A stretch of 46,506 nucleotides of DNA, taken from positions 1 through 46,506 of IMG/VR virus record IMGVR_UViG_2554235504_000004. One strand, given 5' to 3'. A program made the translations under genes and the position numbers. Below are positions 1-46,506 of the stretch, in pieces (position 1 is the first letter of the stretch; every line of letters starts with the position of its first letter). Origin of the DNA: a virus. Below the pieces are notes generated by a model that saw only the letters and a program-made list of their open reading frames with translations, was not told the DNA's origin and did no database searches.

Positions 1-89
1 GGCGCTTCTGGCGGACATCACAACCAGGGTGCCGCCTGGTCCTGCCGGATGAACACACCTTGTCAGGGCGGCACTTACGACGGTTCAGA
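1..89. repeat. Terminal redundancy copy 1 (identical to 46418-46506)
   Basis: Base-by-base comparison of ggcgcttctggcggacatcacaacc...cgacggttcaga at both ends. Confidence 0.95.
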
Positions 90-453
90 TGGTGCTGAGG
101 TTCCGTTCACGAGCCAGGTCTATGATGGGACGGTAGATCCTGATGTGCATCAATACGGTTACGTTGACCGCTGGCAGGCGGGAGGGAGTAAGGGCGAGTG
201 GACGACGATCGACTATCGTATTGAACTCAATACACCAGGGGTAGCGGATGGGCGTCTCATCGGGTGGGTGAACGGAGTGAAGGCGTTCGACAGAGAGGGC
301 TATCTGTTCCGAGACAAGGACCACGCACACCAGGGTGTCCGCTGTTGGCGCTGGCACTATTACTTCGGTGGTTCGTGGGGCTCGCCGAGTGATAACAAGC
401 TCTACGCTCGCAATTTCTCGGTGTGGGCTGACGAGAGCGTTCCGGAGATGTGA
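1..453 (+). CDS. C-terminal part of the junction-spanning polysaccharide-lyase-like protein (continuation of 45533-46417)
   Basis: The frame is continuous with the ORF left open at the window end. Motifs GGTKLPGW, ELNTPGVADGRLIGWVNG and HYYFGGSWGSP resemble the PF14099 / PL14-type jelly-roll lyase family. Confidence 0.6.
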   Translation, partial: GASGGHHNQGAAWSCRMNTPCQGGTYDGSDGAEVPFTSQVYDGTVDPDVHQYGYVDRWQAGGSKGEWTTIDYRIELNTPGVADGRLIGWVNGVKAFDREGYLFRDKDHAHQGVRCWRWHYYFGGSWGSPSDNKLYARNFSVWADESVPEM

Positions 454-6810: not shown

Positions 6811-7057
6811 CGTCAGTGTTGACTCGGATGACAAAGACTGGTTTGACGATTTCAAGGGCGGCAGAAACCAAGCCGAAGCCTTCGCCGAAATGGTTCAAAT
6901 CGTCAAGGCCTTCGAGGGCGAACCAGTGGACCACGAGCAGTTAGCAGAGGAATTGAGCCATACGCTGATACCCCAAGTGGAGGTCGCGTCGTACCGCGGT
7001 TCAAAGGAGTATCTCGAGCAACACGGAGCGGGAACGGAGAGCAACACCGGGCCATGA
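6788..7057 (+). CDS. Hypothetical acidic protein upstream of the methyltransferase
   Basis: 89-aa ORF with an alternative start at ATG 6803 (MGSVSV). ATGA overlap with 7054. Confidence 0.5.
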   Translation: MRDVSMGSVSVDSDDKDWFDDFKGGRNQAEAFAEMVQIVKAFEGEPVDHEQLAEELSHTLIPQVEVASYRGSKEYLEQHGAGTESNTGP

Positions 7058-7896
7058 AGTCAGTATTCCCCTATCCCGGTGGGAAGGCGAAGCTAGCAGA
7101 CTGGATTGTTAGCCACTTTCCAGACCACGGCTGTTACGTCGAAGTCTTTAGCGGGAGTGCTGCTGTACTAGTATCGAAGCCAGAAACTCGGGTTGAGGTT
7201 CTTAACGACTTGGATGGTGATATAGTCCATTTCTTCAAGACACTCCGGGACAGGGGTAACGAACTCCGCGAGTGGTTAAGGAACACGCCGTTCAGTCGGG
7301 AACTACATGATGAGTATGCAACGGAGTTCTACGACGGGAAGCGGCCAGACGATGATATTGAGAGAGCTGGTAAGTTCTTCTATCTCCGATCAACCCAATT
7401 TAGCACTAAGTACGCTAGCAAGAGTGGGTTTGCCACATCGAAACACCCTCAAGTAGACCAAGCAGGTGCATACATGAACCGGGCCGCAGACCTCGATGAG
7501 TTTTCCGACCGTCTTCGGGACGTTGTCATTGAGTCCAAGGACTTCGGAGATATGTTCGACACCTATGACGGGGCTGAGACACTATTCTATTGTGACCCGC
7601 CCTATGTCGGACCCGGTGACTCTCTCTACTCCCACGGAGGGGAATTTGAGCACAGACGATTAATGGAGAGAGTGGCCGAGTTGGAGGGGAAGGTCATCAT
7701 ATCATACGAGGATTTGCCAGAGAGTACACCCGAATCGTTCTATGTTGCTGAGAAGGGGACCACGTATAGCATGGGTACGAACGGCCATGATGAGCGTAAA
7801 GAGGCCACTGAACGATTGGTGATGAACTTCGACCCGGAGGAAGTAACGCCCTTCGCCGGAGTTGACCAAGCCAACTTGGAGGCATTTGGGGACTGA
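7054..7896 (+). CDS. DNA N6-adenine methyltransferase, Dam / D12 class (copy 1)
   Basis: N-terminal FPYPGGK, SAM-binding EVFSGSAAV and catalytic FYCDPPY motifs. Confidence 0.85.
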   Translation: MKSVFPYPGGKAKLADWIVSHFPDHGCYVEVFSGSAAVLVSKPETRVEVLNDLDGDIVHFFKTLRDRGNELREWLRNTPFSRELHDEYATEFYDGKRPDDDIERAGKFFYLRSTQFSTKYASKSGFATSKHPQVDQAGAYMNRAADLDEFSDRLRDVVIESKDFGDMFDTYDGAETLFYCDPPYVGPGDSLYSHGGEFEHRRLMERVAELEGKVIISYEDLPESTPESFYVAEKGTTYSMGTNGHDERKEATERLVMNFDPEEVTPFAGVDQANLEAFGD

Positions 7897-9544: not shown

Positions 9545-9958
9545 TTATATCTTGAGGGCGCGCTTGAGCTTGCTACCGATAGAGTCTCCTCCATCGATTT
9601 TGCTAATCCACTCAGTCATCATATTTGCATTGGGACCCAACTCAACCGTGCCAGTGTCACGATCTCGCTTGACGATATCGTTTTCCTCAAGACGGCCGAG
9701 GTGAGTTTGCTGCATCGACACGTAGATCGTGTGCCGTTCGTTCCCGCTGATGTCTTCGATAGGTCGTCCATATTCGATTTCAGCGACCATATCCACAAGG
9801 TCCCCAAAGTCCAGCGGTCCGTGATCAACTAGGATTCGAAGGGCGGCCCGACGGCGACTATTCGAGAGGAGCGCAAATATCTCATCGATTTCCGCGCTAT
9901 TGCTGCCAGTATCTTCTAAATCGGTGCTTTCAAGTCGCTGGGACGTGTGTACACTCAT
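9545..9958 (-). CDS. Winged-helix regulator of the haloarchaeal 'LLSNxRRRxxL' (ArsR-like) type
   Basis: FALLSNSRRRAALRILVDHGPLDFGDLVDMVAEIEYG...IYVSMQQTHLGRLEENDIV is the characteristic pattern. Confidence 0.7.
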   Translation of the reverse strand: MSVHTSQRLESTDLEDTGSNSAEIDEIFALLSNSRRRAALRILVDHGPLDFGDLVDMVAEIEYGRPIEDISGNERHTIYVSMQQTHLGRLEENDIVKRDRDTGTVELGPNANMMTEWISKIDGGDSIGSKLKRALKI

Positions 9959-10427: not shown

Positions 10428-10880
10428 ATGAGCTCGAATACACGCGGACGTCAGAAGAACAGCCAACTAATATACCTCATCGGGCACCATGAGGTTGAGC
10501 ACGAACACTACCCGCTAACAGGGGCTAGTGGACTAAAATATCCGGCTGATTACCACAAGATCGGCATTGCAGCTGAGCCAAGGCAACGCTTAGTCCGACT
10601 CAACTCAGGAACGCCACACCAATTGGAAATGGTCACTACTCTTGAGTCAGACGACGCTGCTGTAGTCGAGCAGAAACTCCATCAGATATACAGTGCCTCC
10701 CAAAAGACCGGCGAATGGTTCAAACTAACGCACAATGACATCAACTCGTTCGTCGCATTGAACCAACTGGACGTTGCAGACGTGGAAGCATTGGGCGGAG
10801 GGATGGTTCCACAGTGGATTGAGAACGGTACTAATCTGTATATTGAGGTTGAGAAGAACCGTCAGGGTGGTTCTCAATGA
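10428..10880 (+). CDS. T5orf172 / MUG113 (GIY-YIG superfamily) domain protein
   Basis: IYLIGHH...YHKIGIAAEPRQRLVRLNSGTPHQLEMV...VEQKLHQIY...GEWFKL matches the T5orf172 pattern. Confidence 0.65.
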   Translation: MSSNTRGRQKNSQLIYLIGHHEVEHEHYPLTGASGLKYPADYHKIGIAAEPRQRLVRLNSGTPHQLEMVTTLESDDAAVVEQKLHQIYSASQKTGEWFKLTHNDINSFVALNQLDVADVEALGGGMVPQWIENGTNLYIEVEKNRQGGSQ

Positions 10881-21878: not shown

Positions 21879-22715
21879 GTGACTATGCCTCAAAACGTCT
21901 TTCCCTATCCCGGTAACAAAGCACGCCATAGTGAGTGGATCATAGGGCACTTACCAGAGCATACCTGCTATGTGGAACCCTTCGGAGGTGCCGCCGGAGT
22001 CCTATTCAACAAGCCCAAGAGCAAGGTAGAGGTTTACAACGATGTCAACGGGGACCTCGTCCATTTCTTCAAGACACTCCGTGAACGCGGTGATGATCTA
22101 CAAGAGTGGTTGAAGAACGTCCCCTTCTCACAGTCCGTTTACCGAGAGTGGCGTGATGAGTTCCTTGGTGGCGAAAGGGTTGATGACCCAATCGAACGAG
22201 CAGGCCGATTCTTCACACTCCGCTACCAGTCCTTCGGTGGGGCGTTGGATAATACCGCATCTTGGCGAAGACCCTCCTCTGAAATACCAGAATCTTCGAA
22301 GTTCGTCAAGAAGGTTGACGCATTAACACCCTTCCGAGATAGACTGCGCGGTGTCCATATCGAGGAACAGTCTGCGATCGACCTCATTGACAGGTACGAC
22401 AGTGAAGACACAGTGTTCTACTGTGACCCGCCATACATTGGGACAGAACACCGTTACGCCAATAGCGACTTCAACCATCGTTGTCTGCACAAACGGTTGT
22501 CTGAGTGTGAGGGTAGTGTTCTACTCTCCTATGACGATATACCGCCATGGTACGGTGATGGGTGGCAAGTAGTCACGAAGGACGCCAACTTTGCGATTGA
22601 CAACGTCGACGGCGTGAAGGATGCAACTGAAGTTCTCCTAATGAACTTCGATAGTGACGGTGAACCCCTTATGTCCGGTGTAGGACAGCAGGGCTTAGAC
22701 GCTTTTGCAGACTAA
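21879..22715 (+). CDS. DNA N6-adenine methyltransferase, Dam / D12 class (copy 2)
   Basis: FPYPGNK, EPFGGAAGV and FYCDPPY motifs. Roughly half the residues match copy 1 by eye. An ATG alternative lies at 21885. Confidence 0.85.
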   Translation: MTMPQNVFPYPGNKARHSEWIIGHLPEHTCYVEPFGGAAGVLFNKPKSKVEVYNDVNGDLVHFFKTLRERGDDLQEWLKNVPFSQSVYREWRDEFLGGERVDDPIERAGRFFTLRYQSFGGALDNTASWRRPSSEIPESSKFVKKVDALTPFRDRLRGVHIEEQSAIDLIDRYDSEDTVFYCDPPYIGTEHRYANSDFNHRCLHKRLSECEGSVLLSYDDIPPWYGDGWQVVTKDANFAIDNVDGVKDATEVLLMNFDSDGEPLMSGVGQQGLDAFAD

Positions 22716-41180: not shown

Positions 41181-41987
41181 ATGCCAGATCAGACATCACG
41201 ATTAGGACTCGACACGTATAGCCAAGGGGAGTCATGGGATCACACGGACACAGTCCAGGCCGTCGACAAACACGCGATTGTCCACGGCCCGATTGCCGAC
41301 CGCCCGTCGACGGGAGACTATGACGATGAACTCTATCACGCGACGGACCAGAATATCACGTGGCGCTGGGACAGTGACTCAGGGGACTGGGAGTTTTTCA
41401 GCGGTCAAGGGAGTTCCAGCCAACCAGTCCCTGGAATATCTAAATATGAAGCATTAGACGCTGGAACTACGACGGATACATATGAATCCGTTTTACGGAT
41501 CTTCCGGAATGGATCACCCGTCGGTTGGTTGGATAACTCTGGCACAAACGCTCGATTAAAGGCCGCATCGGGTTCAAGTGCTATGATTATCAATAATAGC
41601 GACCAAGGTATTGAGATTACTCCCGGCGGAACGATTGATTTCAGCGCTGGAAATATCCTCAATATGGATGTGGGGCCGCAAGATGACACGTTCGACAATC
41701 CACTCCGGATTTTGAGGAACGGCAGCCCGGTTGGTTGGTTCGACAACTCCGGGTCTGACTTGAGAGTGAAATCTGCATCTGGCTCAAGTGTCCGTCTCAT
41801 CAACAACAATAACAACGGAGTTGAGGTCACACCGAGTGACAAAATTAGCTTCGGAGGGAATGACGTAGGTGATATGCCCCAGTACTCCGACGATACGGCA
41901 CCACCGAACGATACGATGTTTTTCGATACCACAGATTCTCAACTCGAGTACAAAGACCCGAGCGGCAACAACCATGTTCTGGGTTGA
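41181..41987 (+). CDS. Tail fibre protein 1 with two internal repeat modules of about 70 aa
   Basis: The N-terminus TSRLGLDTYSQGESWDHTD...DKHA is a typical fibre start. The LRI(F/L)RNGSPVGW(L/F)DNSG...(K)(A/S)ASGSS... module occurs twice, at aa 101-165 and 171-232. Confidence 0.65.
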   Translation: MPDQTSRLGLDTYSQGESWDHTDTVQAVDKHAIVHGPIADRPSTGDYDDELYHATDQNITWRWDSDSGDWEFFSGQGSSSQPVPGISKYEALDAGTTTDTYESVLRIFRNGSPVGWLDNSGTNARLKAASGSSAMIINNSDQGIEITPGGTIDFSAGNILNMDVGPQDDTFDNPLRILRNGSPVGWFDNSGSDLRVKSASGSSVRLINNNNNGVEVTPSDKISFGGNDVGDMPQYSDDTAPPNDTMFFDTTDSQLEYKDPSGNNHVLG

Positions 41988-42038: not shown

Positions 42039-42317
42039 ATGACAACTTGGGTAGAGAGTAGTAACACGCTTCAAGACGGTTCACCAGTATCGCGCCGAAT
42101 CAAAATTGACGAGATATCAGAGGAGGTCTGGTTCACCGACAACGCCTATGCAGAGGTCAGTGATGACGTAGCTGATATCCTCGCGAATAACCTCGATAGT
42201 ATCACCAAAGTCTCGGAACCCTCCGATCCGGGGACGTACTATAATGAGGACAACGCTAATACGACGATCGAGATAATTGTCGAGGATGGTACGTTCGATG
42301 CTGTTACTGCCGAAGTC
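42039..42317. repeat. Diverged direct repeat encoding the shared fibre N-terminal anchor, copy 1 (partner 44033-44311)
   Basis: Includes identical runs such as gtctggttcaccgacaacgcctatgcagaggtcagtga and aatacgacgatcgagataattgtcgaggatgg. The upstream attaaac(t/a)ATG is also shared. Confidence 0.85.
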
Positions 42318-43139
42318 GGAGACATTGATGATCTGAGCACCGAGCAGATGTTTGTCCTTCCGACTGACCTCTCACAAGTCAGTGGCTCGGACACCACACT
42401 CCACCTGCACGATGGGACGAACTCGATTACGCTCGCAGACGGATCGACGACGAGCAATGTCGGGTACTATCGCTGGGACGAAAGTGCATCTGGATGGAGG
42501 CAGATAGGCCAGGACGCAGACACAGTCGACGGCTATCACGGCGACCAGCTCGCGAAACTCGCAGGAGACACGTTCACTGGCTCCGTACGTGTTGATACGG
42601 ACGGAGAAGATGCGCTTCTCGAACTCCTAACGGCCGCTGGCTCACAGTACTTCCCGACTCTCCATCTTGGTGGAGATCAAGATAACGGCATTCGGTCCCA
42701 GCACGAGCCAGACACGGGTATGGGACGTATTGGGACCGTCGATGCAGGGACGTTTACGGGTATCCTCAACTTCGACCCGGCTGCTGGGAATGCCTCTTTT
42801 GAGCACGTCCGTGACATCGACGTAGGATCATATGATGATTCGTTTGAGTCGGCGCTTCGAGTCCTTCGGAATGGAAGCGCAGTCGGATGGCTCGATAACT
42901 CGGGCTCTAATGTGCGTCTCAAGGCAGCGGCATCATCGAGCGCAGAGCTAATCAACAATAACAACAACGGACTCGAAGTCACTCCGAGTGATAAAATTAG
43001 CCTCGGTGGGAATGACTTTGGGGATCTTGCCGAATACTCTGATGACACTGCCCCATCCAATAGCACTCTATTCTTTGACACCACCGACTCACAAGTAGAG
43101 TACAAAGATTCGAACGGAACAAACCACGTTCTTGGGTGA
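42039..43139 (+). CDS. Tail fibre protein 2 (shared N-anchor with fibre 3, shared C-module with fibre 1)
   Basis: The first ~93 aa nearly match those of 44033-45526. The last 98 aa are homologous to the last 98 aa of 41181-41987. Confidence 0.65.
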   Translation: MTTWVESSNTLQDGSPVSRRIKIDEISEEVWFTDNAYAEVSDDVADILANNLDSITKVSEPSDPGTYYNEDNANTTIEIIVEDGTFDAVTAEVGDIDDLSTEQMFVLPTDLSQVSGSDTTLHLHDGTNSITLADGSTTSNVGYYRWDESASGWRQIGQDADTVDGYHGDQLAKLAGDTFTGSVRVDTDGEDALLELLTAAGSQYFPTLHLGGDQDNGIRSQHEPDTGMGRIGTVDAGTFTGILNFDPAAGNASFEHVRDIDVGSYDDSFESALRVLRNGSAVGWLDNSGSNVRLKAAASSSAELINNNNNGLEVTPSDKISLGGNDFGDLAEYSDDTAPSNSTLFFDTTDSQVEYKDSNGTNHVLG

Positions 43140-44029
43140 TTGCCGTGCGAGTATACTCAGGAGAAGTCCGGCAAGGGTTGTCTGGTTGGGACATCAACTC
43201 TGACCAAGAGCTATGCAGCGTCGACGGTACTTGGCTGGACTCAATTCCGTTAGTCGTCGGAGACAATATCCGTCTCACGAGTACCGATAACGGTAACGAC
43301 GCGTCTTACACAATCGCACGGACTCACGACGATAGTGGTAGTCAATACGTCCGGATGGGGTCGCCCGCTCGCGATCGACTCTATGATAGCAACACGACAA
43401 CCCCCGATACGTTCGGTTGCGAGTTCATCGCGAGTATCCCTCATCAGACGAGTAAATCGGAAGCAGAAGCAGATTCACGAGGAGAGTTGTGGGAACAAAC
43501 CGTATCACACCCTTCTCATGAGTTTGTCGCAACCGCCCCCCATGCTGGCGATGTAGAGTATAACACAGGGTACCAGGCCCGCAAATGTCACGAGTATCTT
43601 GCAAACAGTTCCTTGTGGGTCTGCGATAGTCATGGTGGGGTCAACGGAGCATTTGACCGCTGGCACATCACATCTACTGATGTTAGCTCTTCGTCGTATC
43701 CTGGGCTGACTAGACTCGAATCAGTCGGATATACTGCCGCAGTGTCGTTCCACGGCTATTCGGGAGATACAGTATTAGTTGGGGGTAGAGCCCCCGATAC
43801 CGTCAAGCAAAAAATAGTGGACTCTCTGAATGAACTCGGCGGAGCAACGGCGGAGGTTGTTGGGGAGGGTGACTCTCTGAGTGGGACTGATACATCCAAC
43901 TATGTCAATCAGATAACCCAGTCAGGTGATGACGGTATCCAACTCGAACAACCCTATTCCTTCCGGGATAACTACGCAGAGGAATCGGCACGACGTGTTG
44001 CAAAAGTAATCCTACAGTACTACGATTAA
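43136..44029 (+). CDS. PghP-type poly-gamma-glutamate hydrolase family protein (PF05908-like) with an N-terminal extension of about 125 aa
   Basis: The blocks APHAGDVEYNTG, DRWHITSTD, AAVSFHGYSGDTVLVGG and DDGIQLEQ line up with the conserved blocks of Bacillus phage PhiNIT1 PghP (PHAGGIEVGT, LHVTSTHFD, AVSFHGY..NTLVGG, GVQLE). The GTG start overlaps the stop of fibre 2. Confidence 0.7.
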   Translation: MIAVRVYSGEVRQGLSGWDINSDQELCSVDGTWLDSIPLVVGDNIRLTSTDNGNDASYTIARTHDDSGSQYVRMGSPARDRLYDSNTTTPDTFGCEFIASIPHQTSKSEAEADSRGELWEQTVSHPSHEFVATAPHAGDVEYNTGYQARKCHEYLANSSLWVCDSHGGVNGAFDRWHITSTDVSSSSYPGLTRLESVGYTAAVSFHGYSGDTVLVGGRAPDTVKQKIVDSLNELGGATAEVVGEGDSLSGTDTSNYVNQITQSGDDGIQLEQPYSFRDNYAEESARRVAKVILQYYD

Positions 44030-44032
44030 ACA

Positions 44033-44311
44033 ATGACAACCTGGTTAGAGAGTAGTAACACACTCCAAGATGGAACTCCAGTATCACGCCGAATAAAGAT
44101 TCCCGAAATCTCTGAAGAAGTCTGGTTCACCGACAACGCCTATGCAGAGGTCAGTGACGACGTAGCAGACATCCTAGCGAATAACATTGGCAGTATCAGT
44201 AAAGTCAGTGAGCCAACCGATCCAGGGACGTACTACAATGACGACAACGCGAATACGACGATCGAGATAATTGTCGAGGATGGAACGTTCGATGCACTGA
44301 CTGCGGAGTCT
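44033..44311. repeat. Diverged direct repeat encoding the shared fibre N-terminal anchor, copy 2
   Basis: See 42039-42317. Confidence 0.85.
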
Positions 44312-45526
44312 GTCGACGCTGATACAGCTACGATCACAGCCACGGATACGACTGGCGAACTCCAAACACAACGTGACGTTGAATCGTGGTATTCGACACG
44401 CGGTGGGCCTGTGGCAACGATGCCTCCCGCTGCTTCGTTGTTCGAGGATCTATCTGAGTGGTATGTCTCTGTCGGGTCGTTGAGTGCATCGACGAACAAC
44501 GTGTACCGTGGGAGTCAAAGCGGCCATCTGACTTCTCCGGATAGCGATACTGCCGTTATCAGATACACGTTTAGTTCGGCAGTTGACCTAACGAACATCA
44601 ACCCGTCGATCAGTGCTCGCTCACCAGTCGATAAGCTACTTCGGGTTGAAGTCCGATATCGAGATTCGAACGGGAATACCGTTACCCACCGAAATCTCTA
44701 CGCTCAGAAGAACGCGGTCGGCGAGTGGGCGCGGCATGATCTTGGCGTCTCGAACGATGGTGGTGTCGACCTCACGGCTGTTAGCGAGGTAGATGTTCGG
44801 ATCATCACGAATGACGGTTCGAACGGGATCGACGTATATCTCGATGATCTACGGTTCGTCGAAGGCTTAGACAAGGGTATTGTTATTCTCACTTACGACG
44901 ATGGGCGAAGTTCGGTCTATGAGAACGCGCTTCCGAATCACGAGAAGTACGGTTTACCGGGCGGGATCGGTGTAATGACTGGTTCGGTTGGTGATTCGGG
45001 ATACATGACGTGGGACCAGATCGGAGAGTTCGAAGCTGCGGGGTGGGACGTGAACAACCACCAAGTCACGAACACTGATCTGACTGGAATGACCGAATCT
45101 GAGGTTGATGAACAGCTCCGCCCGGCGAAGCGAGAGCTTATCGAGAACGGCGTCACGAACGGTCTCGATGTGGTGTACTACAGGGGTGGGAATTACGATA
45201 CCACAGCGGTTGAAGCAACGGAGAAACATGCGGACTTAGCGTTCACCACAGGGTCTAAGTCAAGCGCGGTCACGTCGCCAGCCCCAACATCGCCGTTAAC
45301 GATGAATCGTTGGTTCCCGCGTAGCGATACGGCGGGCGTCTCAACGATGCTGGATTATGCCGAGACCTATAACGACCTTCTCGTCTTGGGCTGGCATACG
45401 GTTGGAACGACAGACGACGAGATCACAACCGCAGACCATGACTCGGTATTGAGCGATATTGTAAGTCGCAATCTGACGGTTCTCACTCCGAGTCAATTCG
45501 CCGCCACGCAGTCAAATCACTGGTGA
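44033..45526 (+). CDS. Tail fibre protein 3: shared N-anchor + CBM-like beta-sandwich + NodB/CE4 polysaccharide deacetylase domain
   Basis: NodB motifs LTYDDG, GWDVNNHQV, YYRGGNY and LVLGWHTV lie at aa 282-490. A jelly-roll-like middle region (VYRGSQSGHL...IDVYLDDLRFVEG) spans aa 135-278. Confidence 0.7.
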   Translation: MTTWLESSNTLQDGTPVSRRIKIPEISEEVWFTDNAYAEVSDDVADILANNIGSISKVSEPTDPGTYYNDDNANTTIEIIVEDGTFDALTAESVDADTATITATDTTGELQTQRDVESWYSTRGGPVATMPPAASLFEDLSEWYVSVGSLSASTNNVYRGSQSGHLTSPDSDTAVIRYTFSSAVDLTNINPSISARSPVDKLLRVEVRYRDSNGNTVTHRNLYAQKNAVGEWARHDLGVSNDGGVDLTAVSEVDVRIITNDGSNGIDVYLDDLRFVEGLDKGIVILTYDDGRSSVYENALPNHEKYGLPGGIGVMTGSVGDSGYMTWDQIGEFEAAGWDVNNHQVTNTDLTGMTESEVDEQLRPAKRELIENGVTNGLDVVYYRGGNYDTTAVEATEKHADLAFTTGSKSSAVTSPAPTSPLTMNRWFPRSDTAGVSTMLDYAETYNDLLVLGWHTVGTTDDEITTADHDSVLSDIVSRNLTVLTPSQFAATQSNHW

Positions 45527-45532
45527 AACACC

Positions 45533-46506
45533 ATGTTTAACGCACTCCTTGAACTCCTCAAACTCATCTTTGGGGGGACAGACAACGACAGTGGCAACGA
45601 CAACGAACAACCAGAGCCAGACGAACCAGACACTCAGCCTACTCCCGAACCGGAGCCCGAGCCTGAACCCGCACCTGAACCAGAACTTGAGCCGCTGGGT
45701 CTCCTCGAAGACTCGAGCGCGCAAAAGGGACAGACACGTCACTCTGGCGTCCGAATCCGCACGAAACAGGCCCTCGAAGGGCTGGAATGTCGCCTCTCCG
45801 ATCGGACTAGCGGCGTGACGATGGCCTACCTCAAGACGGTACCCGGCGAAATAATTGAGTCTCAGCCGATCACTGATCGGACAGTTCGCTTCACGAGTTC
45901 GCTTGAATCTGACTCGGGCTATCAGGTCGTCTGTGCTGCGGGCGGCAACGTCTACGAGAGAGGTCGCCGTATCGTCGACTATCCCGTCAAGAGCGAAGCC
46001 CTGGACGCAACACACGGGATTTACTCGTCCGGCGGCTCTCAGAGCCGCAAATATCGCTATAACTTCGCCGAGATTCAGCCTCTCACTGACAGTCCGAGAG
46101 ACGCGCCTGTAGCCGGCGTGAGCGAGGGCGAACCCAAGCCGGACTATCACTCGCAAAAGCTCCGGGAGACGACGAGGGCCGAACGCTGCCACATTGTGCG
46201 GACGGGTGATGGGGATGGGGACGCACTCCAGGTCAACTATCCCGAGGGAGAGACCGACGGCATTAATGAACGTGTCTATCTCGAAAACGCAGTTGGCTAC
46301 GAGCCAGAGGTAGCACACGCGCGGTATGAGTTGTATGTTCCCGATGACTGGGAAGTGTGGAACGACGGGATCAATGGAGGGACGAAACTCCCAGGATGGG
46401 CTAATCAGGCCGAGGGTGGCGCTTCTGGCGGACATCACAACCAGGGTGCCGCCTGGTCCTGCCGGATGAACACACCTTGTCAGGGCGGCACTTACGACGG
46501 TTCAGA
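45533..46506 (+). CDS. Polysaccharide-lyase-like protein (PF14099/PL14-type), N-terminal and central part; open at the window end and continuing at 90-453
   Basis: My translation from ATG 45533 has no stop up to 46506 and is in frame with 49-453 across the 89-bp overlap, giving about 445 aa in total. It has a hydrophobic N-terminus MFNALLELLKLIFGG and a PEPEPEPEP linker. The ORF track missed it because it lacks a stop inside the window. Confidence 0.6.
   Translation, partial: MFNALLELLKLIFGGTDNDSGNDNEQPEPDEPDTQPTPEPEPEPEPAPEPELEPLGLLEDSSAQKGQTRHSGVRIRTKQALEGLECRLSDRTSGVTMAYLKTVPGEIIESQPITDRTVRFTSSLESDSGYQVVCAAGGNVYERGRRIVDYPVKSEALDATHGIYSSGGSQSRKYRYNFAEIQPLTDSPRDAPVAGVSEGEPKPDYHSQKLRETTRAERCHIVRTGDGDGDALQVNYPEGETDGINERVYLENAVGYEPEVAHARYELYVPDDWEVWNDGINGGTKLPGWANQAEGGASGGHHNQGAAWSCRMNTPCQGGTYDGS
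46418..46506. repeat. Terminal redundancy copy 2 (identical to 1-89)
   Basis: Same 89-bp string as the window start. It may be an assembly overlap of a circular or permuted genome, or a short direct terminal repeat. Confidence 0.95.

Follow-up and report, generated by a model that had tools for sequence, protein, structure and literature searches.

A poly-γ-glutamate hydrolase family protein encoded beside the tail-fiber genes of a Natrialba taiwanensis virus

Characterized poly-γ-glutamate (PGA) hydrolases of the PF05908 family, which include PghP of Bacillus phage PhiNIT1 (Protein Data Bank [PDB] 3a9l), PghP of phage PM1 (21dc), and the prophage-derived PghL/YndL of the Bacillus subtilis chromosome (5onj, solved with a γ-PGA hexapeptide), are all single-domain proteins of ∼200 amino acids. 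The presumed role of the phage-encoded enzyme is removal of the polyglutamate barrier; phage without PghP cannot infect PGA-producing Bacillus cells, and the supernatant of infected cultures was the source from which PghP was purified (PMC4497714). In archaea, a PghP-like protein was reported by Mamberti et al. in 2015 from N. taiwanensis and four other haloarchaea, which were not known to have a dedicated phage (PMC4497714). Here, a gene of this family (43136..44029, + strand; 297 amino acids counted from a GTG codon at 43136) is described in IMG/VR record IMGVR_UViG_2554235504_000004, a contig assigned to N. taiwanensis whose 46,506 nucleotides constitute the window analyzed; an identical protein is recorded for the same species. 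To our knowledge, the crossing of layers outside the S-layer by archaeal viruses is almost unstudied. A first-pass annotation made from the sequence had read the gene as a PghP-type hydrolase with a His/Glu/His zinc site, situated in an archaeal virus's tail-fiber block ahead of two further envelope-active enzymes, and both this core reading and the open reading frame (ORF) it was based on are supported by the present analysis.

Two viral proteins of this family were already present in public databases. Among isolated archaeal viruses, the proteins nearest to the window protein are HCTV-1 gp129 and HCTV-16 gp133, from members of the Druskaviridae that infect Haloarcula californiae; GenBank and RefSeq give both of them the annotation poly-gamma-glutamate hydrolase, and both fall in PHROG 4175. 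RefSeq likewise names the window protein, in a shortened form, “poly-gamma-glutamate hydrolase family protein.” The initial description of this enzyme class as unusual for an archaeal virus was therefore overstated at the database level. In the accessible literature on haloarchaeal tailed viruses, the enzyme of HCTV-1 and HCTV-16 is not discussed, and no literature discussion was found of the enzyme in archaeal viruses or of a provirus in N. taiwanensis. An archaeal-virus depolymerase of the tail-borne type, or one with a defined substrate, was likewise not found in the accessible literature. Features for which no prior description was found are the N. taiwanensis gene in an apparently complete viral genome, its additional N-terminal domain, the pairing of fiber and enzyme as a module, the retention of every PGA-recognition residue, and the truncation of the current gene model. 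The family itself is unsurprising; what the locus offers is a well-defined candidate enzyme that could become the first depolymerase of capsule type from an archaeal virus. With a solved family mechanism, a PGA-producing host genus, and an apparently complete virus resident in a culture-collection strain (DSM 12281), this idea is directly testable.

Catalytic domain and predicted active site

Residues 112 to 280 of the 297-residue protein (43469..43975, + strand) matched the Pfam γ-PGA hydrolase domain PF05908, scoring 53.9 bits where the gathering cutoff is 22 (E = 2.1e-14; profile positions 10–168 of 191), in agreement with the original family call. A still broader match, spanning residues 4 to 285, was obtained to PHROG 4175, “poly-gamma-glutamate hydrolase” (E = 1e-66). 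A single-sequence search of the PDB recovered PghP 3a9l at E = 9.6e-8, and a profile of 29 family members retrieved 3a9l (E = 4.5e-19), 21dc (3.4e-17), and 5onj (1.1e-13) with all motifs in register. The protein is almost certainly a member of the PF05908/PghP family, an assignment that is solid and already made in the databases. Identity to PghP is ∼27% and to PghL/YndL ∼20%, and the window protein further differs from PghP in being highly acidic, as a halophile protein, in its archaeal host, in an added N-terminal domain of ∼100 amino acids, and in the pairing of its gene with a fiber gene.

The four motif blocks from which the first-pass annotation recognized the family are present in the order given there, namely PHAGDVE (residues 135–141), WHITST (176–181), SFHGYSGDTVLVGG (204–217), and GIQLE (267–271). 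H136 and E141, the ends of an H-A-G-D-V-E stretch (43541..43558, + strand), align with the PghP zinc ligands His40 and Glu45, and H206 (43751..43753, + strand) aligns with the third ligand, His103, so that the His-Glu-His site proposed initially is complete at the sequence level. The H177-I-T179-S180 segment (43664..43675, + strand) corresponds to PghP His78/Thr80/Ser81, which bind substrate carboxylates. E271 is equivalent to the catalytic Glu165 of PghP and R277 to Arg171 of PghL (43946..43966 for the E271 to R277 segment, + strand), and the E-x5-R spacing equals that of the solved enzymes. Across the 29 sequences, H136, H177, and E271 are invariant, while E141, T179, S180, H206, and R277 are at least 90% conserved. 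Two asparagines, N255 and N258, are candidates for the position of PghL Asn151, and their conservation in the alignment is likewise complete or no lower than 90%. Alanine substitution at PghP His40, Glu45, His103, His78, or Glu165 is reported to damage activity, and the eight conserved positions listed above match PghP or PghL residues at which mutation abolishes it (PMC6506827). In the PghL-PGA complex, the polymer is contacted by His77, Thr79, Ser80, Asn151, and Arg171, the last being an essential anchor for the PGA α-carboxylate (PMC6506827); all of these reported side-chain contacts have counterparts in the window protein.

An AlphaFold2 model built from the 29-sequence alignment reached a mean predicted local distance difference test (pLDDT) score of 94.1 and a predicted template modeling (pTM) score of 0.90. 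Its three best PDB matches in Foldseek were the solved γ-PGA hydrolases themselves (3a9l PghP, 5onj PghL with PGA, and 21dc PM1 PghP), with TMt values (TM-score normalized by target length; TMq, by query length) of 0.66 to 0.70 and root-mean-square deviations of 2.6 to 3.4 Å, consistent with the PghP-like fold that had been anticipated. The two phage enzymes, which share with the model an open α/β zinc-carboxypeptidase-like fold, gave TMt 0.69 to 0.70 and deviations of 2.6 to 2.7 Å. As in PghP, the zinc triad, the catalytic Glu, and the equivalents of His78, Thr80, Ser81, and Arg171 are all kept. The protein probably hydrolyzes a γ-glutamyl polymer. Phages sometimes use inactivated enzymes as adhesins, and the present gene lies among receptor-binding genes, an arrangement that would also suit a catalytically dead or repurposed module acting as a receptor-binding protein that recognizes the polymer without cutting it. 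Conservation of the zinc ligands, the catalytic Glu, and the His/Thr/Ser/Arg recognition residues, both here and across 29 homologues, makes such a loss of catalysis very improbable.

The explanation that best accounts for the locus overall, and one considered reasonably likely, is an active PghP-family enzyme that clears a polyglutamate-type exopolymer for a co-inherited fiber. The protein would be a zinc-dependent endo-γ-glutamyl hydrolase fused to an N-terminal double-psi β-barrel (DPBB). By homology, zinc would be held by H136, E141, and H206 and the attacking water activated by E271, with H177, T179, S180, and R277 gripping the free α-carboxylates of the γ-linked glutamate chain. Cutting of a poly-γ-glutamate-type exopolymer that Natrialba can make would then let the fiber reach its receptor, and a fiber-anchored carbohydrate esterase family 4 (CE4) deacetylase and a polysaccharide lyase family 14 (PL14) enzyme encoded downstream could add to the attack on the envelope. 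A role of the hydrolase in crossing host exopolymer appears fairly likely; we infer both its substrate and its timing, that is, entry versus post-lysis spread.

N-terminal barrel domain and gene start

The N-terminal extension, noted earlier as absent from PghP, is indeed present, although it measures ∼100 to 110 amino acids rather than the ∼125 first estimated. AlphaFold2 and Foldseek place a DPBB at residues ∼4 to 100 (43145..43435, + strand), modeled with pLDDT 84 to 96 across the domain. Structural matches include the designed DPBBs 7du6 and 7dvh (TMt 0.75–0.77), the N domain of p97 (p97-N), expansin, loosenin 9ce9, and viral RlpA-like proteins. Residues 1 to 110 found no match in Pfam or NCBIfam and so belong to no curated DPBB sequence family; the domain is nonetheless conserved in 28 homologues. 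The high pTM of the whole chain (0.90) suggests that the barrel packs on the catalytic domain in a fixed way.

The combination of DPBB and PF05908 is widespread, occurring in bacterial metagenome-assembled genomes, Nitrososphaeraceae, and Halobacteriales. Secreted haloarchaeal, Nitrososphaeraceae, and bacterial proteins of this architecture share the motifs of the window protein at 28 to 38% identity. They differ from it in lying in housekeeping contexts without a fiber partner and in frequently carrying a lipobox or a signal peptide of the Sec or Tat type. Since the same barrel occurs in secreted cellular enzymes that have no fiber partner, it more likely binds polymer than docks the enzyme to the virion. 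In isolated archaeal viruses, HCTV-1 gp129 and HCTV-16 gp133 also end in a DPBB followed by PF05908 (27% identity; Foldseek E = 1.6e-20; TMq 0.71). The HCTV unit forms the end of a 1045-residue protein, whereas in the window it is a free-standing protein of ∼295 residues. Within HCTV-16 gp133 (6715..9852 in L001), about eight DPBB-like stretches at ∼100-residue spacing precede the PF05908 domain; the full-sequence E value for the repeats is 1.2e-23, and two stretches are individually significant. This repeat architecture is absent from the gp133 database record.

Assignment of the N terminus depends on the start codon. The GTG at 43136 overlaps the TGA (43137–43139) that ends the upstream ORF (42039..43139), and a second in-frame GTG at 43145, just preceded by GGTGAT, would yield a 294-residue form. 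It is the latter codon that aligns with Met1 of the closest homologues (P0002, MRVYSGEV...; P0004, MRRFEGEV...), which leaves the start in use, and hence GTGA coupling to the upstream gene, uncertain. The GTGA overlap pointed out in the first-pass annotation is thus a fact of the sequence but may not mark the start used; on this alignment, the real start may be GTG 43145 rather than GTG 43136. An independent Logan gene call gave the 297-residue form. The RefSeq model WP_152422695.1, by comparison, starts at ATG 43355 and comprises 224 amino acids, which cuts the N-terminal domain; ∼70 residues of the DPBB, encoded by 43136..43354, are left out. Because these residues are conserved in 28 homologues and modeled with pLDDT 84 to 96, the RefSeq model is too short, and a practical correction is that WP_152422695.1 should be extended.

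Because the enzyme is read in frame −1 with respect to the upstream ORF, a programmed −1 frameshift fusing fiber to enzyme was considered, but it was rejected. Upstream, the enzyme frame stays open for just 19 codons, without an evident slippery heptamer. In addition, fusion is not conserved: in another virus-like contig (L047), the two genes lie in the same frame and are separated by TAA and 6 nucleotides.

Fiber partner and neighboring enzymes

The hydrolase-like gene lies downstream of the tape measure gene and between two genes whose products begin with a common fiber-type anchor. Its upstream partner (42039..43139, + strand; 366 amino acids) is of baseplate/fiber type, and residues 1 to 92 of this protein form a virus-specific anchor. 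The gene immediately downstream (44033..45526, + strand; 497 amino acids) encodes a protein whose first 92 residues are 90% identical to those of the partner (42039..42314 and 44033..44308), in accord with the earlier statement that another fiber gene follows. Elsewhere, the same ∼92-residue module stands at the N terminus of P0034, a metallophosphoesterase protein, and of P0035, from Halosimplex. Tail fibers are usually built in this way, with interchangeable distal regions joined to a virus-specific N-terminal anchor. In its own right, the ∼92-residue module resembles a shared baseplate-docking adaptor.

The pairing of partner and enzyme recurs in other haloviruses. The closest full-length homologues of the enzyme are encoded on two virus-like contigs of hypersaline sequencing runs, P0004 on L047 (46,964 bp; 52% identity) and P0005 on L048 (32,826 bp; 49%). 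In L047 and L048/L049, the gene just upstream is 55 to 59% identical to residues ∼90 to 366 of the partner. The pair is joined by an ATGA overlap in L048 and separated by 6 nucleotides in L047. Apart from the pair, these genomes are unrelated to the window: the rest of the L047 and L048 tail blocks is unshared, and the portals are only ∼25% identical. In HCTV-16, the baseplate hub gene is followed by gp132, a homologue of the partner (E = 5e-16), and then by gp133, and in HCTV-1 gp129 is similarly preceded by gp128. The central partner segment is homologous to HCTV-16 gp132, HCTV-1 gp128, and gp31 of HRTV-11 and related hafunaviruses; in these hafunaviruses, the gene immediately follows a baseplate J-like gene and precedes P2 gpI-like and tail-fiber genes. 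More distant enzyme homologues (∼30–35% identity) are without such a partner. From these comparisons, fiber and enzyme behave as a module that passes between haloarchaeal tailed viruses of unrelated lineages, and retention of the pair across them speaks for a target common to both proteins. The pair could serve as a metagenome marker for viruses of polyglutamate-coated haloarchaea. A more specific form of this idea, held only tentatively and on balance doubted, is that the enzyme docks on the C-terminal part of the fiber partner and that the two make up a portable polymer-binding and polymer-cutting kit, traded between unrelated haloarchaeal tailed viruses for infecting polyglutamate-coated hosts. 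If real, such a kit would make an archaeal virus the first with a demonstrated capsule-depolymerase system in its domain, and γ-glutamyl exopolymers would then be a widespread antiviral barrier in haloarchaea, even in genera such as Haloarcula from which none is known.

Both genes downstream of the hydrolase encode predicted envelope-active enzymes, as the proposal of a three-enzyme set had it, with identification at the family level. The 44033 protein carries a PF01522 polysaccharide deacetylase (CE4) domain at residues 280 to 399 (48.5 bits; cutoff 23.1). The next gene begins at 45533 (45533..46506, + strand) and continues over the circular junction of the genome into 90..453 (+ strand), giving a protein of 445 amino acids in which a Pro/Glu-rich linker (PEPEPEPEP...) is combined with a PF21294 polysaccharide lyase 14 domain (51.1 bits; cutoff 27). 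PL14 is the family of the Chlorella-virus cell-wall lyase. Placement of envelope enzymes in a receptor-binding block is reminiscent of the tail-borne depolymerases and deacetylases of bacteriophages (PMC5380687), and a CE4 protein with a fiber-type N-terminal anchor follows their usual design.

The position of the three enzymes also allows for a function at exit, in which they would be produced late, loosen envelope and exopolymer from within or around the lysing cell to free the progeny, and form no part of the virion. The genes close the late operon, a position given to lysis genes in many phages; the hydrolase-like protein is without a signal peptide or virion anchor, and PghP itself was recovered from culture supernatant (PMC4497714). 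Against exit stand the tight pairing of the gene with a baseplate/fiber-type gene in four virus lineages and the fiber's N-terminal anchor on the CE4 protein, a sign that the tail carries one or more members of the set. In addition, no holin-like or membrane-disrupting gene was identified beside the three. A dedicated exit function is accordingly considered distinctly unlikely.

Some further observations concern the neighbors themselves. By eye, the CE4 domain (residues ∼285–345) contains a TYDDG motif, while NNHQVTN occupies the place of the usual H-[ST]-x-x-H metal motif with the second His apparently replaced, so that the metal site may be atypical. The junction-spanning PL14 gene is missed by ORF lists of the linear contig. 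Upstream of the partner, a fiber-like paralogue (41181..41987, + strand) shares its C-terminal 120 amino acids with the C terminus of the 42039 protein at 64% identity, which suggests two fibers with related tips. The paralogue also contains an internal duplication (residues ∼99–162 and 162–268).

Host polymer, chromosomal homologues, and viral genome

The source of the contig fits the earlier view that the enzyme hints at the nature of the host envelope, as N. taiwanensis is a close relative of the γ-PGA producer N. aegyptiaca. In the accessible part of the literature, the classic example of an archaeon that produces extracellular γ-L-PGA is N. aegyptiaca, and the same taxonomic paper, according to reference lists and reviews, separated N. 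taiwanensis from N. asiatica. A salt-active γ-L-PGA hydrolase could help to tailor archaeal PGA.

Several findings nevertheless weigh against a tail-associated enzyme that clears PGA. The fiber partner found no match in Pfam (E values up to 10), PHROG, or NCBIfam, although its DADTVDGYH...GDTFTG segment may be a common tail-fiber motif. Its AlphaFold2 model, built with seven sequences, reached a pLDDT of 38.8; with this failed model, the fiber nature of the partner rests on its position, its modularity, and its homology to unnamed baseplate-adjacent genes. Unlike tail-borne depolymerases, the hydrolase-like protein has no recognizable virion anchor or trimerization module, and it has no similarity to the 92-residue anchor of the 42039 and 44033 proteins. 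Most of the DPBB-PF05908 family is cellular and without a fiber partner. With respect to the polymer, no literature statement was found that N. taiwanensis itself makes PGA, and its PgsB-like matches reported by Mamberti et al. are weak (171–184 amino acids, 25–27% identity; PMC4497714). No literature report of PGA was found for Haloarcula californiae, the host of HCTV-1 and HCTV-16, and a literature search on PGA genes in other haloarchaea was unproductive. Physical attachment of the enzyme to the virion is possible, although our assessment leans somewhat against it; a free enzyme released at lysis, for which Bacillus PghP provides the precedent, is about as likely as a fiber-bound one.

Occurrence of the same domain in Haloarcula californiae viruses, with no PGA report for that host, means that the substrate may be broader than PGA or different from it. 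An enzyme of the same family could act on another γ-glutamyl or isopeptide component of the envelope, such as a glycosylated poly-γ-glutamine wall of the Natronococcus type or an undescribed Haloarcula or Natrialba polymer. The viral enzymes are 27 to 34% identical to characterized PghP enzymes, the added DPBB resembles the glycan-binding RlpA/expansin folds, and the CE4 and PL14 neighbors point to a glycan-containing target. However, the residues that grip free α-carboxylates in the PghL-PGA complex (the H-x-T-S motif, the Asn, and the Arg171 equivalent, six positions beyond the catalytic Glu) are all retained at unchanged spacing, and this Arg would be unneeded if the α-position were amidated or glycosylated. 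A substrate other than free PGA is consequently regarded as unlikely, and hydrolysis of a polyglutamate-type exopolymer is retained as the preferred reading.

Natrialba chromosomes carry PF05908 genes of their own, some of them with Tat signal peptides. In N. chahannaoensis, such a gene encodes a twin-arginine signal and lies among GatB, acetyl-CoA synthetase, and SMC genes. A 346-residue chromosomal PF05908 protein is found in a housekeeping context in N. taiwanensis (P0071), N. aegyptia (8001..9041 in L062), and N. asiatica; its motif reads WHIMSA, with Met at the position of PghP Thr80. Thr80 is reported to be necessary for PghP activity (PMC6506827), and activity or specificity of the chromosomal protein may therefore differ. 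As circumstantial evidence, these chromosomal genes fit a genus that handles γ-glutamyl polymers. They also raise the question of recent capture from the host, in which the viral gene would be a “moron” with no infection role and the lysogen would feed on environmental PGA; a nutritional role has been proposed for cellular PghP-like genes by Mamberti et al. (PMC4497714). Such an origin is hardly credible on sequence comparison and context. The viral protein is 49 to 62% identical to proteins on other virus contigs but 31% identical to the N. chahannaoensis chromosomal homologue, itself 34% identical to P0071. Moreover, it has no signal peptide, which a host enzyme would require for secretion, and its gene is paired with a fiber gene inside a late structural operon.

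The PghP-like accessions given in Table S1 of Mamberti et al. for N. taiwanensis (ELY88023.1) and N. aegyptia (ELZ06690.1) (PMC4497714) differ from the chromosomal homologues found here. ELY88023.1 may be an old record of the present gene, and ELZ06690.1 may belong to a related viral element with the same enzyme in N. aegyptia.

The window appears to be the complete genome of a tailed archaeal virus, circular or concatemeric in the sequenced culture. Its ends carry an exact 89-bp direct repeat (1..89 = 46418..46506), an assembly overlap that joins them into a 46,417-bp circle. Structural genes upstream of the fiber block encode a terminase large subunit, portal, Mu-F-like protein, capsid protein, an 851-residue tape measure (34595), and tail-type and baseplate-type proteins. 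No integrase was seen among the window ORFs scanned, and the window contains no tRNA genes. A nucleotide search with the 5.5-kb cassette against 50,697 phage records gave no match, and the putative capsid-region protein gave only a weak match among phage records, to the HGTV-1 prohead protease; together these results indicate no close sequenced relative in that collection. Other genes of the window include a helicase gene, two genes for D12-class N6-adenine (Dam-type) DNA methyltransferases (7054..7896 and 21879..22715), and genes for a T5orf172/MUG113-domain protein (10428..10880) and a DUF7344 protein (9545..9958, − strand). GC content across the window is 50 to 58%.

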